Source of the DNA: an uncultured Candidatus Peribacteria bacterium
Lineage (GTDB): Bacteria > Patescibacteriota > Gracilibacteria > Absconditabacterales > Absconditicoccaceae
Assembly (NCBI GenBank): GCA_964504915.1
Contig: CAZDFH010000006.1
Span: 4,356-68,355, forward strand
DNA: 64,000 bases
Direction: 5' to 3'
Both the position numbers and the translations under genes were made by a program. Of this stretch, positions 34,402-44,823 are shown piece by piece. The notes under the pieces are model-generated. The model was not told the DNA's origin and did not search any database. It worked only from the letters and a program-made list of their open reading frames with translations. The number at the start of each line of letters is the position of its first letter. Position 1 is the first letter of the stretch.

Positions 34402-36600
34402 ATGGCTATCTACAAAATCAGGAAAAGAAATGGTGTTATCGTCTCTTTTGAGAGAGAAAAAATTGAAAATGCCATCAAAAGAGCATTCGAATCTGCAGGA
34501 GAAAAAGACCTGTCCGCTGTATCTACACTTACAGACAAGGTTGTCGACGAAGTGGAAAAGAAAATTGGTACGAATATTCCTGATATTGAGATTATCCAAG
34601 ATGCCGTAGAGATTGTCCTGATGAGGGAATGATATGAGACTGTAGCCAAGAGTTTCATTACCTATCGTGCTAAGAGAGCTGAGTTTAGAAGTGAAAAGGA
34701 GATCCTTCTTGACGTAGGAAATACGATGAATGAGTACCTTGATCATCTTGATTGGAGAATTAATGAAAATGCAAATATAGCTTATTCTATCTGAGGACTT
34801 ATTCTCAAAAATTCAGAGAAAATTACAGCAAATTACTGGCTTTCTCACGTCTATCCTGAAGAAATCGGCAATGCACATAGAAATGGAGATCTTCATATTC
34901 ATGATCTATGAATGTTTACTCCGTATTGTGCAGGACGAAGTCTGAGACAATTATTGGAAGAATGATTTAATGGTGTCGGTGGTAAAGTAGAATCTAATCC
35001 ACCAAAACATTTGCAGTCTGCTGTCAATCAAATGGTTAACTTTTTCTGAGTACTTCAGAATGAGCGAGTAGGTGCACAAGCATTTTCATCATTAGATACT
35101 TATTTAGCTCCATTCGTTCACAAATATTCAGAAGAATTGAGAGAAGAACTTGTGACGACACATGCACAATTTGCTAGTGAAGAAGAGAAAGAAGCATTTA
35201 TGGATAAGAAAATAAATAAGTACGTGTTACAAAATTTACAAAACTTTGTCTTCAACCTAAACACTCCATCCCGTCGAGGAACACAGACGCCGTTTACCAA
35301 TGTTACCTTGGATTGGACCTGTCCAGAAGATTTGAAAGATAAGGCATTATATTTGGGAGGTTTGTCTGAAGGCCCATACAAGAAGAAGTTCGGTGAACTA
35401 GAAAAAGAAATGAGGATCGTCAATAGAGCGTTGATCAAGGTATATACTCAATGAGATATGAATGGAAGAATATTTACCTTCCCTATCCCTACTTACAATA
35501 TTACAGAAGATTTCCCATGGGAAGATCCAGATGTAGATGCGTTGTTTGAGATGACTGCAAAATATGGTATTCCTTACTTCCAGAATTTCGTCTGATCACA
35601 ATATACTGTCGATGAAAAAGGTAATACTGTCGAAAATCCAAACGCATACAAACCAGGTAATGTAAGATCAATGTGTTGTAGATTACAATTGGATTTGAAG
35701 GCATTGGAGAAGAGAGGATGAGGACTATTTGGTTCTGCCGAGATGACCTGATCTGTAGGAGTAGTTACCTTGAATATGCCTAGGATAGGATACAATTTCA
35801 AAGATGATAAAGAATGATTTAAAGAGCAGGTTCGTTATCTGATGAACCTTGGAAAAAATTCTCTAGAGATCAAGAGAAAGGTCGTAAATAGATGGTTAGA
35901 TGCTGGTTTGTATCCATACACCAAGAGATACTTAGCATCATTTAGAAATCATTTCTCTACTATCGGACTCAATGGAATGAACGAAGCTATCCTCAATTTC
36001 ACCAATGGAAAAGAAGATGTATCTACCAAACGAGGAAGAGAATTCGCAGCTGAGATACTCGATTTTATGAGAGATGTCTTGACCGAATACCAAGAAGAAA
36101 CAGGTAACTTATATAATCTAGAAGCGACACCAGCAGAAGGTGTCTCATACAGACTTGCAAGAGAAGATAAGAAACAATTGCCTGGCATCATTCATGCAGG
36201 GACTAATGACGCTCCTTACTATACCAATTCTTCTCAGCTACCAGTGACCTTTACTGATGATGTCTTCGAAGCGTTGGATATCCAAGATGAATTGCAATGT
36301 AAGTATACTGGTGGAACAGTTTTCCATGTGTATTTGGGAGAAAGAATTACTGATGCAGATGCTTGTAAAGCATTAGTCAAGAAGTGTATGGGTAAATATA
36401 GAATGCCATATATCTCTATTACGCCTACCTTCTCTATCTGTCCAAAGCATGGATACATAGTCGGAGAACATGATTACTGTCCTATGTGTGACAAAGAGAT
36501 CTGATACACAGGAGCAGAATATGACTTGGAGACCAGAGATATCTTTACCGCCGACAAGAGTAAATTAGAAAAATTTAGAGAAGCAGAAATTTCTATCTAA
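34402..36600 (+). CDS. nrdD: Anaerobic ribonucleoside-triphosphate reductase (class III), lacking the glycyl-radical C-terminus
   Basis: It has an ATP-cone N-terminus and the motifs HIHDL, YCAG[CGA]SL, NE[CGA]VGAQAF, SMCCRLQLD and GSVGVVTLNMPRIGY, plus the Zn site CPKH..CPMC. The frame was checked and ends at TAA 36598-36600 with no RVxGY motif. Confidence 0.9.
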
Positions 36601-36639
36601 TCACTATAAAATTCTTTTATTCTATAAATCATCACGCAC

Positions 36640-36855
36640 ATGAGCGCAACATTTGTAAACAAAGATGGAAAAGAAGTAGAGAGAACAAGATGTCTTATCT
36701 ACACTCGCGTAGTAGGATTTTACAATCCTGTCAGCAATTTCAATATTGGTAAAAAAGGAGAATTTTATACAAGAAAGTATTTCAACGAAAAGAAATCTAT
36801 GAATTCTGAATTCTCAGCAAAGTATGCTCCCGCTGCTTGTCCTTGCTCTTGCTAA
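36640..36855 (+). CDS. Stand-alone glycyl-radical module (NrdD C-terminal domain homolog, 71 aa)
   Basis: CLIYTRVVGFYNPVSNFNIGKKGEFYTRKYF matches the NrdD C-terminal ..sRv.GY..pv..wN.GK..E...R.. glycyl-radical signature. It is in the same frame as nrdD but separated from it by three TAA codons. Confidence 0.7.
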   Translation: MSATFVNKDGKEVERTRCLIYTRVVGFYNPVSNFNIGKKGEFYTRKYFNEKKSMNSEFSAKYAPAACPCSC

Positions 36856-36860
36856 AAAAC

Positions 36861-36892
36861 AGTGAAGAGTGAAAAGTTAAAAGTGAAAAGTG
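36861..36892. repeat. GTGAAAAG-word repeat block
   Basis: AGTGAAGAGTGAAAAGTTAAAAGTGAAAAGTG, directly after the stop at 36855. A TTAACTATTAG/TTTTTAGTTATTCAC block follows at 36924-36954. Confidence 0.75.
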
Positions 36893-36957: not shown

Positions 36958-37407
36958 ATGGCTGAAGACAAAAAGAGAGTATGAGTAGGATTTGGAGTTA
37001 TGATCCTGAGAGATGGGAAAGTATTGCTCGGACAGAGACATCTAGATCCTGAAAAAGCTAGTTCTCTCATGCATGGAGAAGGTACCTGGACTATGCCAGG
37101 GGGCAAGACAGAATATCATGAGAGTTTTGAAGAGATGGCATACCGTGAGACATTAGAAGAGACATGATTAAAAATTAATCCAGATACTATGAAAATAATT
37201 AGCATTACTAATGATATAGTCCATGATAATCATTTCGTTACTATTGGGTTCCTGTGTACAGATGTGGAATGAGAACCCCAAGTTATGGAGCCAGATGAAA
37301 TTACTCAACGACAACGATTTTCCTTAGATAATTTACCATCGCCGATATTCTTTCCTAGTGAGAAAGTAATCAAGAATTATCTTGCGTGAACGGTTTACAA
37401 ATACTAG
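36958..37407 (+). CDS. NUDIX hydrolase
   Basis: Nudix box GGKTEYHESFEEMAYRETLEET[G]L (GX5EX7REUXEEXGU). Confidence 0.8.
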
Positions 37408-37436
37408 ATGTATGTGCATTTATTTACATATCATAT

Positions 37437-37625
37437 ATGATGACTAAAAAATATAAAAAGAACCCAAATACTCTTATAGTAGAAAATATTGAAAAATTGA
37501 TGGAAAGAAATGGTGGATATTGTCCTTGTCAGGTGGGAAAAAATGAAGATACGTTATGCCAGTGTAAAAAATTTAGAGAGGGGAATGGTTGCTGTTGTAA
37601 TTTGTATGTAGAGGATAATGAGTAA
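37437..37625 (+). CDS. Ferredoxin-thioredoxin-reductase catalytic-subunit-like protein
   Basis: GGYCPCQ-x9-CQC-x8-CCCNLY follows the CPC..CPC..CHC.LF pattern of FTR beta-type proteins. Confidence 0.55.
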   Translation: MMTKKYKKNPNTLIVENIEKLMERNGGYCPCQVGKNEDTLCQCKKFREGNGCCCNLYVEDNE

Positions 37626-37741
37626 ATTTCTGAAAAAGATACTACCCCAAAGTAAAGCGATGAGACAGAATCATATATATATCATTCTGTTTCTAAATCC
37701 TTTGCTTTTTTGTTTACTCTTTTATTTCTTTGTGTCCTGTG

Positions 37742-38002
37742 ATGGAAGACTTCTATGCTCAATTATTAGTAGCTCCCAAGTGGCATAATCAGGCATTTAT
37801 TCACAAGCAACTTGGCACTCATTTACTGGAATGTAAGAAGTTATTAGATATGTGAGATGGGCATTTGGCGGCGGAGCTTGTAGATCTGATCCAAATTGCT
37901 AAACTCTATTTGCATCATAGATTTACTCCTGAGCAACTGTCTGCACTAGTACAAAAAAGGTCTGATAGATTTATGGAAAAAATAGATCGAGATATGGAAT
38001 AG
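37742..38002 (+). CDS. Hypothetical small alpha-helical protein (possibly NTP-pyrophosphohydrolase-like)
   Basis: ATG at 37742 to TAG at 38000, with one TGA. It shows only weak resemblance to the MazG-like fold. Confidence 0.35.
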
Positions 38003-38024
38003 TTTTATCTGCTGTGTGCACTCT

Positions 38025-38453
38025 ATGAAAATTACTATCTGTGGAAGTTCTACCTTCAAGAAGGAGATGCTGGACTACGAAACTAGGTTGACTCAGTTAG
38101 GTCATGAAGTCATAGTTCATCCGGATTATGCTGCTTTTGTGAGAGGTGAGAAGCAAGATATTCGACATATGGTAGAACATGGGGAACATGCCAAGGCCAA
38201 AAGAGAAAATAATTATATTAGGCGATATCATAATGCTATCATGCAGAGTGATGCTGTGTTGGCTCTCAATTTTGATAAGAAGGATATCCCTCATTATATC
38301 GGTTGTAATACACTTATGGAAATAGCGTTTGCGTATACCGCAGACAAAAAAATATTCTTGCTGAATCCACTTCCCGACCAACCCTATATTCACGATGAGC
38401 TTACTGCTATGGATCCTATCGTGATCGACTGAGATTTATCTCGTATTGTATAA
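38025..38453 (+). CDS. Nucleoside 2-deoxyribosyltransferase-like protein, paralog 1
   Basis: The MKITICGS..F N-terminus and ..AVLALNFDK...YIG.NTLMEIAFAY...KIFLLNP are typical of the NDT/Rcl-like Rossmannoid family. Confidence 0.55.
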
Positions 38454-38455
38454 CT

Positions 38456-38869
38456 ATGAAAATTACTATTTGTGGCAGCTTGGCATTTGCAGAAAAAATT
38501 CTCGAGATAGAGAAAGAGCTTCAGGCATTGGGTCATAGTACGCTTATTCCTTTGGATACACATGTATTTCTCAATGAAGGAGCTGTCAATGATTGGACCG
38601 GACAGCCTGACTTTGGTAGAGAAGGTATGCTGGGTCACTATGAAAATATCGCTATAAGTGATGCCATCCTTGTTGTTAATTTCGATAAAAATGGAGTAAA
38701 AGGATATGTATGAGGGTCCACATTGATTGAAACGGGCATCGCTGCTCATCTCAAGAAAAAAATATTTTTGCTCAATGAAATCCCTAGTGAGGATGATCTG
38801 AGATATGCACAAGAAATAAAACTACTTCTACCAATTATCATTAATGGAGATCTCAGTAAAATTATATAA
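38456..38869 (+). CDS. Nucleoside 2-deoxyribosyltransferase-like protein, paralog 2
   Basis: MKITICGSLAF... AILVVNFDKNGVKGYV[G]GSTLIETGIAAHLKKKIFLLNE. It is a tandem paralog of 38025-38453. Confidence 0.55.
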
Positions 38870-38895
38870 GATTTTATCTACTACATTATATGCCC

Positions 38896-39216
38896 ATGAA
38901 ATTAAGCGAGATTGGAAAACAAACTCATGCTATTGAACAAGAAATAGGTGTTAATCTAGATGCTGTGATGCATAAGCTCACTCAGGAACTTGGAGAATTT
39001 AACGATGCTGTCCAGAAGTATAGATGAATACTTAGCAAGACAAAAACTGAAAATTTAGATAAGGTAGAGGATGAAGTTGGTGATCTTTTCTTCAATATCA
39101 TTTCTATCTTGTATAATCTTGGTATCAATCCTGATAGATTACCTGAATTTGCTGAAAATACTCTTCATAAATTGGAAGAGAGAAAAAATCTCTATAAGAC
39201 AAATATGCCCAAGTAG
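38896..39216 (+). CDS. MazG-like nucleotide pyrophosphohydrolase
   Basis: LTQELGEFNDAV ... VEDEVGDLFFNIISILYNLGINPD. Confidence 0.6.
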
Positions 39217-39236
39217 ATTTATTTATATCGAAGCTT

Positions 39237-39947
39237 ATGAAGATAGCGTGAATCCAGCAATCAAGTTTATTAGATTATCCAGGGCAAATTTCCTGTATCG
39301 TCTTTACCCCATGATGCAATTTCCGCTGTCATTTTTGTCATAATCCCGAATTAGTATTGCCTGAGCAGATGATGCTATTCCAAAATGATCATATCTCTGA
39401 AGAGGCATTTTTCAATTTCTTGGAAGGTAGGAAGTGACTTCTCGATGGTGTGACAATCTGTGGTGGAGAGCCTACTTTGCAAGCTGATTTGTTTGAGTTT
39501 GCGGAGAAGATCAAAAAGATGTGATTTCTAGTCAAGTTGGATACCAACGGGAGAGACTATGAGATCGTAGAAAAACTCATTCAGCATAAATTAGTTGATT
39601 ATGTGGCCATAGATCTCAAACACGTTCCCGCGTTTTATGAGAAGGCTGTCGGTGTGCCTCAGACCAATGATTTTTTTACAGAGTATAGGAAAATATTAGC
39701 ATTGCTTCGTACTGGTGTTGTGGAATATGAGTACAGGACTACTGTCGTGAAAGGAATGCATACGATTGTCGATATAGAAAAAATGGCCGAGTATGTGCAA
39801 GGTGTCGACCATTATTACTTACAAAATTATGTCTGATGAAATAGTCTAAATCCTGATTTTGGTGGCGAATCGTTTAGTGATGACGAATTGCTCGCCTTCC
39901 AAAGTGTGGCTTCTAGATATGTGAAACATTGCGGACTAAGAAAATAA
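39237..39947 (+). CDS. nrdG: Anaerobic ribonucleotide reductase activating protein (radical SAM)
   Basis: DYPGQISCIVFTP[G]CNFRCHFCHN (CxxxCxxC), GVTICGGEPTL and KLDTNG. It is in frame with track ORF 39537-39836, and the stop is TAA at 39945. Confidence 0.85.
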
Positions 39948-44230: not shown

Positions 44231-44315
44231 CGGAAGGCACAGGATTCGAACCTGCGGTACCTTGCAGTACGCACCGTTTCCAACGGTGTGCTTTAGACCA
44301 CTCAGCCAACCTTCC
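44231..44315 (-). tRNA. tRNA-Ser (anticodon GGA), class II with long variable arm
   Basis: Reverse complement GGAAGGTTGGCTGAGTGGTCTAAAGCACACCGTTGGAAACGGTGCGTACTGCAAGGTACCGCAGGTTCGAATCCTGTGCCTTCCG. The anticodon stem is CACCG/CGGTG with loop TTGGAAA, and the T-arm is CAGGTTCGAATCCTG. No CCA is encoded. Confidence 0.9.
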
Positions 44316-44326
44316 TTATGGGTATT

Positions 44327-44461
44327 GGAACGATAGATTTTGGAACGATAGATTTTGGAACGATAGATTTTGGAACGATAGGACTTAGAACGATAGGTTT
44401 TGGAACGATAGATTTTGGAACGATAGATTTTGGAACGATAGATTTTGGAACGATAGATTAT
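44327..44461. repeat. Tandem repeat, 15-bp unit GGAACGATAGATTTT x9
   Basis: Nine head-to-tail units, two of them variant (GGAACGATAGGACTT and AGAACGATAGGTTTT). The array lies upstream of the tRNA on its strand and touches the stop of the next gene. Confidence 0.95.
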
Positions 44462-44823
44462 GGTTTTGCGTGTGTTTTTTTGTATCTTATTAATGATGAT
44501 AGCATTTTCAAAATAATAGTAATTTCTTCGTCTAATGTATCTGACTTATTTTTTGTGATAAATCATTGTCTTTGTGCAATCAATAAATGTGTTTGAACTT
44601 CTGCTGCCGATCATTTAGCTATATAGAGAAAATTTATATTCTCTTTATTTGTATTTCTTTGATCTCATTCTGCTATATTTGCAGCGATAGAATTAGATGC
44701 TCTCTTAATTTGGTCTATAAGTGCAAACTCCATTTTTGGAAAAGTTTTGGTAATTTCATACATTGCATCCACAAAGTTCATTGCTCTCTTTCGTACTTCT
44801 AGTTTTTGGTAACTTTTGTCCAT
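44458..44823 (-). CDS. Four-helix-bundle protein (23S rRNA intervening-sequence protein family; Avd-like fold)
   Basis: QIKRASNSIAANIAE[G]... FLYIAK[G]SAAEVQTHL matches the Qi.rAa.Si..NIAEG ... iA.GS..E..t.l signature. Confidence 0.75.

Follow-up and report, generated by a model that had tools for sequence, protein, structure and literature searches.

Can a class III ribonucleotide reductase (RNR), the oxygen-sensitive, anaerobic type of the enzyme, draw its glycyl radical from a protein that is encoded by another gene? The question is raised by the nrdD locus of an uncultured Candidatus Peribacteria bacterium (GTDB family Absconditicoccaceae; assembly GCA_964504915.1), contained in a stretch of 64,000 nucleotides of contig CAZDFH010000006.1 that was analyzed as a whole and is called the window here. 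An earlier note on this DNA had proposed a two-piece NrdD in which the glycyl-radical module is a separate protein of 71 amino acids (aa). This proposal is upheld by the partition of the domains between two open reading frames (ORFs), by purifying selection, by the recurrence of the same arrangement at 78 of 80 related loci, by a natural fusion of the two pieces (locus L038) and by the presence of a gene for the activase NrdG nearby. The two ORFs are separate, conserved and co-located, and jointly they are colinear with full-length NrdD. On these sequence comparisons, we consider it very probable that they encode a class III RNR made of two polypeptides, both obligate, with the radical subunit acting in trans; the small protein would be an obligate subunit, the large chain being devoid of a radical domain.

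The large subunit ends shortly after the zinc ribbon

The large-subunit gene, nrdD, occupies positions 34402..36600 of the forward strand (to which all coordinates below refer) and, read with genetic code 25, encodes 732 aa: an ATP-cone and the class III RNR barrel, followed by a Zn ribbon and a tail of 32 aa. The G+C content of the window is low (37%), and TGA serves in it as a sense codon. Ten of the 11 in-frame TGA codons of nrdD fall in columns dominated by glycine in an alignment of 119 homologues, tryptophan appears at these columns only in homologues whose source used code 4, and the TGA at 36502-36504 is replaced by GGA in a related species (L001). The glycine-dominated columns and this GGA are the reasons for reading the locus with code 25, in which TGA specifies glycine. 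The comparison set consisted of the 120 best homologues of the large subunit, 119 of which are 723-761 aa long and one (P0115) 1080 aa; the alignment is reported for 119 of them, at 65-71% identity, and the named sources among the 120 are Gracilibacteria, Absconditabacteria or SR1, including RAAC1_SR1_1 and Ca. Absconditicoccus praedator.

The domains of a class III enzyme are readily recognized in this chain. The ATP-cone (aa 5-93, 34414..34680) matches Pfam PF03477 with an E-value of 2.4e-20 and 73.3 bits, and the NRDD domain (PF13597) is matched with 564.5 bits (cut-off 26.2; E 3.6e-169) over profile positions 1-529 of 562. The ORF also passes the family models TIGR02487 (460.6 bits, cut-off 326.35) and NCBIfam NF006126 (1009 bits, cut-off 548). 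In a phmmer alignment to the Prevotella copri NrdD structure (8p23_A), the motif SMCCRL (aa 423-428, 35668..35685) lies on the finger loop, and its second cysteine aligns with the finger-loop cysteine of the P. copri enzyme ("rsmccrl" against "atmgcrt"); by analogy with the established chemistry of class III RNRs, this residue would carry the thiyl radical.

The Zn ribbon, CPKHGYIVGEHDYCPMC (36439..36489), is the last element that the large ORF has in common with canonical NrdD. It is a C-x2-H...C-x2-C variant (CPKHGY...CPMC), in which the four ligand positions of the predicted metal site are C, H, C and C, and the ribbon region is retained in all 119 aligned homologues. Four of these (P0083-P0085 and P0094) have ribbons of the form ISPKYGY...CPKC, lacking both the first cysteine and the histidine, and the metal site may have been lost in some Gracilibacteria. 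Alignment of the large ORF to solved NrdD structures stops at the ribbon, at residue 703 of 743 in 8p23_A and 610 of 651 in 4coi_A. From there down to the stop codon at 36598, no R-x-x-G-[YF] motif is present, so that under code 25 the gene does, as the earlier note had it, run through its Zn ribbon and end at a TAA without a radical motif.

The stop lies 36 aa past the last ribbon cysteine, after the residues DKEI and a tail, GYTGAEYDLETRDIFTADKSKLEKFREAEISI (36502..36597), whose first codon is TGA, read as glycine. This 32-aa tail had been described as non-conserved; it is in fact conserved in the clade, following the pattern G-Y-x-G-x-x-[FY]-[DN]-x-x-x-R-x-x-[HY]-T-x-D-x-x-K. Of the 119 homologues, all have R712, 117 have T716 and 116 have K721; with Y702 included, retention at these four positions runs from 110 to 119. 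The same kind of tail, without a radical motif, terminates all 120 of the best homologues.

A separate glycyl-radical protein

The nrdD stop codon (TAA, 36598-36600) is followed by a spacer of 39 nt (36601-36639), the two together spanning 36598..36639; the nrdD frame is kept across the spacer, with two more in-frame TAA codons at 36607 and 36625. When the spacer is compared with that of L001, its sole conserved block is TCTTTTAT at 36613-36620. T-rich TTTAT or TTTAAT blocks resembling it occur upstream of many other genes in the window, and the spacer block may be a gene-start signal in a window without Shine-Dalgarno sites.

The small ORF (36640..36855) encodes a stand-alone glycyl-radical module of 71 aa that begins MSATFVNKDGKEVERTRCLIYTRVVGFYNPVSNFNIGKKGEFYTRKYF and has a Cys-rich end, CPCSC; its complete translation is MSATFVNKDGKEVERTRCLIYTRVVGFYNPVSNFNIGKKGEFYTRKYFNEKKSMNSEFSAKYAPAACPCSC, with the radical region RVVG26F...N.GK..E. 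In Pfam, it matches NRDD over profile positions 533-562, that is, the last 30 of the 562 positions, with an E-value of 3.3e-5 and 23.2 bits. A profile built from small ORFs aligns to residues 613-646 of Thermotoga maritima NrdD (4coi), VDEYMRIVGYLVPVSAFNKERREIEYPRRQFYDS, the C-terminal stretch that contains RIVGY. The identification of this exact 71-aa ORF as the glycyl-radical loop with its N.GK..E signature was thus correct. Taken together, the limits of the large-ORF and small-ORF alignments on 8p23 and 4coi locate the break precisely at the boundary of Zn ribbon and radical hairpin. The predicted radical glycine, Gly26 (codon GGA, 36715..36717), aligns to the glycine of RIVGY in 4coi, and its column is invariant in one alignment of small ORFs and at least 90% conserved in another. 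An AlphaFold 2 (AF2) model of the small protein alone predicts a hairpin, with strands at residues 18-24 and 27-33 and G26 at the turn, at a pLDDT of about 70. A Foldseek search of PDB with this model gave no match at E<1, and a phmmer search of PDB with the C-terminal fragment plus the small ORF as query gave a chance match only. The strict PROSITE-type motif [CSA]-G-Y is absent from the small ORF, which, judged by eye, has V-G-F instead.

Several features of the small subunits and their partners deserve mention in their own right. The sequence RVVGF at 36706-36720 is found in this genome and its closest relative, and nearly all other small subunits have RVMGY or RVVGW. A cysteine eight residues before the radical glycine (R-T-x-C) is present in at least 90% of small subunits, the corresponding residue of T. 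maritima NrdD being valine, and in the large subunits of the split subfamily C-P-x-H replaces the first C-x-x-C of the Zn ribbon; the conserved cysteine and the C-P-x-H ribbon may point to an inter-subunit metal or thiol contact. Cys-rich C-termini occur both in the window (CPCSC, 36835-36852) and elsewhere (for example CGCHN, GCCA and CYSCGQC among L006-L085); at least two cysteines stand among the last 12 residues in 23 small subunits and in 7 large-subunit tails, out of 77 of each. These Cys-rich ends of the split NrdD pieces resemble the redox-shuttle tails of class I and class II RNRs.

Conservation of the junction

The junction between the two ORFs is identical in five assemblies, namely the window, the metagenome-assembled genome (MAG) GCA_037142855.1 from NCBI, two Logan assemblies and one from ENA, and the identical 71-aa protein is present in four other assemblies. 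Comparison with the second species, L001, is informative in a different manner: the layout of 732 plus 71 aa is the same and the small ORFs are 83% identical, the spacer is 37 nt long with insertions and deletions that place the small ORF in another frame, and the flanking coding DNA stays aligned. Between the window and L001, the small ORF and the tail give dN/dS values of 0.10 and 0.11, respectively, and the C-terminal part upstream of the tail gives 0.04 (dS is greater than 1); these values indicate that both pieces are coding and constrained. The split is therefore neither an assembly artefact nor a pseudogene. In the NCBI record of the MAG (L002; JBAWZT010000003.1, 20-3001), short fragments are called and no nrdD appears upstream of the 71-aa ORF, which suggests that GCA_037142855.1 was annotated with code 11 despite coming from an organism that reads TGA as glycine.

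Distribution of the split

To what extent is this arrangement peculiar to the lineage from which the window comes? Loci were surveyed with the Zn-ribbon region as query, using one genome per GTDB species, and the best 80 of 593 confirmed loci were analyzed. At 78 of the 80, NrdD stops 12-51 aa past the ribbon and is followed, on the same strand, by a separate ORF of 45-136 aa with the signature R-[TQ]-x-C-[EQ]-[VI]-[YW]-[TS]-R-V-[MV]-G-[YW]-x-x-P-V-x-x-[FWY]-N-x-G-K-x-x-E; the large subunit is without a radical domain at 79. Among 77 measurable loci, the gap between the two ORFs has a median of 52 nt and ranges from -7 to 468 nt, and 24, 28 and 25 of the small ORFs lie in frame 0, +1 and +2, respectively, with reference to the large ORF. 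The even distribution of frames implies that the shared frame in the window is due to chance: the 39-nt spacer, the common frame and the three TAA codons singled out by the earlier note are all there in the sequence, and the sharing of a frame is coincidental. Record titles assign the loci to TGA-recoded Gracilibacteria/SR1, code-11 Patescibacteria, Atopobiaceae/Olsenella, Holosporales, Lactobacillales, Aquabacterium and other Proteobacteria. Among the SR1/Gracilibacteria loci of this set the split is kept, with no continuous ORF apart from the fusion L038, and the pairing of a truncated NrdD with a mini-ORF extends far beyond them, to Ralstonia and Cupriavidus. The split is thus broader than had been thought and is not peculiar to SR1/Gracilibacteria.

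The split was also traced in cultured bacteria. In a tblastn search of plasmid and chromid records, the small ORF was matched in 162 records; the same kind of search against phages gave no match. In Ralstonia solanacearum, nrdD (685 aa) is followed by a 58-aa "hypothetical protein" whose start overlaps the nrdD TGA stop (ATGA) and whose end is overlapped by nrdG, and the large and small ORFs are, to judge from this overlap, translationally coupled. On pHG1 of Cupriavidus necator H16, a 676-aa "ribonucleoside triphosphate reductase" ending in ...CPRCDEEILARKRDQLAA precedes a 66-aa coding sequence, named "nrdD" in RefSeq, and then nrdG. In Paracoccus denitrificans, a reading frame with the glycyl-radical motif is present at the matched locus, in a record that is unannotated there and in which the stop of the large gene was not located. 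The nrdDG genes of pHG1 are reported to be required for growth without oxygen and for denitrification (PMC2864759, citing Siedow 1999). As this locus is of the split type, a locus of the split type works in vivo.

Searches with the small protein itself point to a large family. At E<=1e-3, 1039 clusters at 50% identity match the small protein of the window, the best 150 of them being 51-146 aa long, and in a profile search with small ORFs 7998 of 8000 candidates were scored as hits; the top 120 are 53-109 aa long and are named "anaerobic ribonucleoside-triphosphate reductase" or "hypothetical protein". A mini-ORF without a partner was noted on plasmid pALVIN01 of Allochromatium vinosum DSM 180 (L090:3480-3689): it encodes a 69-aa NrdD-type glycyl-radical protein, called "nrdD" in RefSeq, has no large nrdD within 3.5 kb on either side and adjoins a CHAP-domain gene. 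This orphan could be a true spare part or a remnant. Collectively, the sequence comparisons indicate that the split goes back a long way within a large NrdD subfamily, marked by the C-P-x-H...C-x-x-C ribbon and the model NF006126, and did not arise in this particular genome.

A natural fusion

At one of the 80 loci (L038:6001-6408 in CALNYL010000009.1, a Gracilibacteria MAG), the tail and the small ORF form one chain, ...ETRKIYTDDKEKMAELSSVFVGKDGKKVKRTRCEIYTRVMGYHRPV..., in which the radical glycine (RVM-G-Y) is encoded by TGA. Because the radical glycine is written as TGA, the function of this radical site depends on the code-25 reassignment. The nearest relatives of the L038 protein are NrdDs of the split type, at 76-79% identity, and the fusion would be explained most simply as a secondary one, by which parts that had been separate were rejoined. 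The existence of such a fusion shows the two pieces to be parts, in colinear order, of a single functional unit.

Alternative explanations

Could the two ORFs be, or become, a single NrdD? If the break were a sequencing or assembly error, or the mark of a recently broken and decaying pseudogene, the true gene would be continuous or dead. The position of the small ORF in the nrdD frame, only 39 nt away, is what such damage would leave, and the NCBI MAG record calls no nrdD, although that is a consequence of code 11. Against these stand the identical junction in five independent assemblies, the related species that keeps both ORFs in different frames, dN/dS of about 0.1 on both sides of the break and the same split at 78 of 80 loci in several phyla, so that this explanation, which the earlier note had named as a possible refutation, deserves practically no credence. 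The ORFs might also be joined during expression into a full-length NrdD, by programmed recoding (readthrough, reassignment of TAA or frameshifting) or by splicing of the RNA or protein. The window already reassigns one stop codon, its two ORFs share a frame, and the nrdD gene of phage T4 carries a group I intron. Readthrough would have to act at all three TAA codons, however, and the spacer gains and loses nucleotides like non-coding DNA; in relatives the frames are evenly distributed and the gaps run from -7 to 468 nt, the closest relative being out of frame. The even distribution of frames across 77 loci excludes joining by readthrough or frameshifting, and we regard recoding or splicing of any kind as very improbable. 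An intron at the junction was considered and rejected, there being no Rfam match and 39 nt being far too short, as was a split intein, for which the 32-aa tail and the 17-aa N-terminal part of the small protein are too short and the junction residues are not conserved.

Alternatively, the small protein might be a spare, comparable to GrcA, for a full-length NrdD encoded elsewhere in the genome, and the large ORF might have another radical source or another function. In favor of this, only 64 kb of the genome are visible, the orphan mini-ORF of A. vinosum pALVIN01 has no adjacent large gene, and glycyl-radical proteins that are autonomous have a precedent in GrcA/YfiD (PMC13450708, PMC8683613). 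The tight adjacency of a truncated large gene and a small ORF at 78 of 80 loci is difficult to reconcile with a spare, as are the translational coupling in Ralstonia and the fusion of exactly the large-subunit tail and the small ORF in L038. Moreover, the large chain keeps its finger-loop cysteine and Zn ribbon under strong purifying selection, and the locus on which anaerobic growth of C. necator is reported to depend, that of pHG1, is of the split type. We therefore find this explanation unlikely.

Some observations nevertheless weigh against an obligate two-chain enzyme or temper it. A truncated NrdD at one locus (L055) has no glycyl-radical ORF within 6 kb downstream. The count of a single nrdD covers the 64-kb window, the rest of the genome lying outside the view. 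The Pfam score of the small ORF is just under the gathering score of 26.2 bits, the AF2 model of the lone small protein is only moderately confident (pLDDT 67.6), and the radical motif is RVVGF here and RVMGY in most relatives. Finally, production of the small protein, its activation and its docking on the large chain are deduced from sequence, and its exchangeability after oxygen damage is purely conjectural. As to the exceptional locus itself (L055:6001-12171, from a Holosporaceae MAG), its NrdD ends 13 aa past the Zn ribbon, and it is the only such exception among the 80.

Relation to known systems

Canonical NrdD and NrdG proteins, such as those of E. coli, phage T4, T. maritima and P. copri (PDB 1h79, 4coi, 8p23), share with the split system the ATP-cone, the barrel, the finger-loop cysteine, the Zn ribbon, the hairpin R-V-x-G-[YF]...N.GK..E and a radical-SAM (S-adenosylmethionine) activase encoded nearby, and the chemistry is presumably the same. 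The activase gene is located in the window here and is adjacent or overlapping in Ralstonia and Cupriavidus. What differs is that the canonical radical loop forms the C-terminus of the same chain, whereas here it is a separate gene product and the large chain has a clade-specific tail; in addition, the canonical Zn ribbon is 2 x C-x2-C, in contrast to the C-x2-H...C-x2-C found here. A radical loop in the same chain is a defining feature of NrdD that the large ORF by itself lacks, and it is the pair of proteins together that corresponds to NrdD.

A likeness already suggested by the earlier note is that to GrcA/YfiD, the spare part of pyruvate formate-lyase (PFL), and to phage T4 Y06I, which are likewise small stand-alone glycyl-radical modules (PMC13450708, PMC8683613). 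In both cases the module is presumably activated by the activase of the enzyme that it serves and then enters a catalytic barrel that has no intact radical domain, and GrcA/YfiD with the PFL-activating enzyme sets a precedent for an activase that accepts a small free radical module (PMC8683613). The likeness extends to the small stand-alone form and stops at the notion of a spare: GrcA coexists with full-length PFL and acts only after oxygen cleavage, whereas the large chain here never has a radical domain and the small protein would be obligate. GrcA is, furthermore, homologous to the C-terminus of PFL (PF01228), and the small ORF of the window matches only PF13597 in Pfam. Division of an RNR between two adjacent genes is known from the class II enzyme NrdJa/NrdJb of Pseudomonas aeruginosa (Crona et al. 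2015, cited in PMC9669993), in which a C-terminal module also resides on the second gene; the RNR class, the split point and the cargo are different, NrdJb being composed of IscU-like and Zn-finger domains with a redox cysteine pair and no radical site. Class I RNRs resemble the split system in combining a large catalytic and allosteric subunit (NrdA) with a separate radical-harboring subunit (NrdB). NrdB, however, is an unrelated, ferritin-like metalloprotein from which the radical is transferred over a long distance, whereas the radical element here is homologous to the C-terminal end of NrdD and would be expected to lie within the barrel.

A split class III RNR was not described in the literature searched, which did not include Siedow et al. 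1999 or the pHG1 sequence paper; to this extent, the earlier statement that no such arrangement was known holds. In the reviews consulted, the glycyl radical resides on a conserved glycine at the C-terminal end of the catalytic protein itself. A review of 2026 regards small stand-alone glycyl-radical proteins as known only for formate-lyases (PMC13450708), and the Drennan laboratory has speculated that small radical proteins might exist for other glycyl-radical enzymes (PMC8683613). The split is visible in databases, where RefSeq annotates the mini-ORFs as "nrdD" or "hypothetical", though we did not find it discussed. The NrdDG of Cupriavidus metallidurans has been listed as Rmet_5137 plus Rmet_5139, with the intervening Rmet_5138 passed over (PMC2864759). 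Family phylogenies that are filtered by length lose the mini-genes, as in one from which sequences of less than 400 aa were dropped (PMC9531940).

A possible mechanism

In the two-chain enzyme envisaged here, the 732-aa chain would contribute the ATP-cone, the Zn ribbon and a barrel of ten strands that holds the finger-loop cysteine, and the 71-aa chain would contribute the glycyl-radical hairpin and the helix that follows it, equivalent to the extreme C-terminus of canonical NrdD. NrdG, with S-adenosylmethionine, would abstract a hydrogen atom from Gly26 of the small protein, whose hairpin would insert into the barrel of the large chain beside the finger-loop cysteine. The glycyl radical would then generate a thiyl radical on SMCCRL and nucleotide reduction would start, as in canonical NrdD. 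Oxygen cleavage at the glycyl radical would destroy only the small chain of about 7-8 kDa, which could be replaced, and would spare the 84-kDa catalytic chain. It may be speculated that such cheap repair fits the presence of the split in denitrifiers that alternate between oxic and anoxic conditions.

More tentatively, and with rather less expectation that it will prove correct, the small subunit can be pictured as a dissociable "radical cartridge" that NrdG activates off the enzyme, that then docks, and that is swapped after oxygen cleavage. Docking might be held by the clade-specific tail together with the near-invariant cysteine eight residues before the radical glycine, and this cysteine might work with the unusual C-x2-H Zn ribbon.

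Genomic context

The window contains one nrdD and one glycyl-radical motif. The activase gene, nrdG (39237..39947; 236 aa, with the cluster motif CNFRCHFC), lies 2.4 kb downstream of the small ORF and is of the NrdG2 type according to TIGR02495 (182.5 bits, cut-off 131.15). The interval between them (36958-39947, nrdG included) is filled with genes of nucleotide metabolism, all on the same strand as nrdD: a NUDIX hydrolase (36958..37407), two tandem paralogous ORFs of about 140 aa (38025..38453 and 38456..38869), one of which has a sub-threshold match to Nuc_deoxyrib_tr, and a MazG-like pyrophosphohydrolase (38890..39216). Between the large and small ORFs, no terminator-like or promoter-like site was found, the scan being at chance level. 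No Shine-Dalgarno sequence precedes the small ORF, which is uninformative since, of 40 long ORFs in the window, just 2 are preceded by such a sequence. An Rfam scan of the whole window detected only a tRNA and no family at the split junction. Two repeats were noted, a 7-nt tandem repeat (AGTGAAA, 4.6 copies) at 36861-36892, directly past the stop of the small ORF, and a 15-nt repeat (9.3 copies) at 44325-44463, which encodes GTIDF repeats and adjoins tRNA-Ser(GGA) at 44231-44315.

Implications

The window is an ordinary member of an overlooked group, and the interest lies in the group as a whole. A large and phylogenetically broad group of class III RNRs whose radical loop is a small protein of its own, 45-100 aa long, bears directly on the view that stand-alone glycyl-radical proteins are confined to formate-lyases. 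The large genes of this group look truncated, and the mini-genes are labeled hypothetical, mislabeled as full "nrdD" or skipped. If the two-subunit interpretation is true, heterologous expression of such RNRs would not succeed unless the small gene were included. C. necator H16, P. denitrificans and R. solanacearum are tractable organisms in which the proposal can be tested, and NrdG activation and oxygen damage could be studied conveniently on a substrate of about 7 kDa. Should the small subunit prove to be a dissociable cartridge as well, a large branch of class III RNRs would use a separate radical subunit as class I does, and this would be the first glycyl-radical enzyme with a radical domain obligately in trans. 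Denitrifiers and Patescibacteria would then gain a cheap route of repair during oxygen transients.

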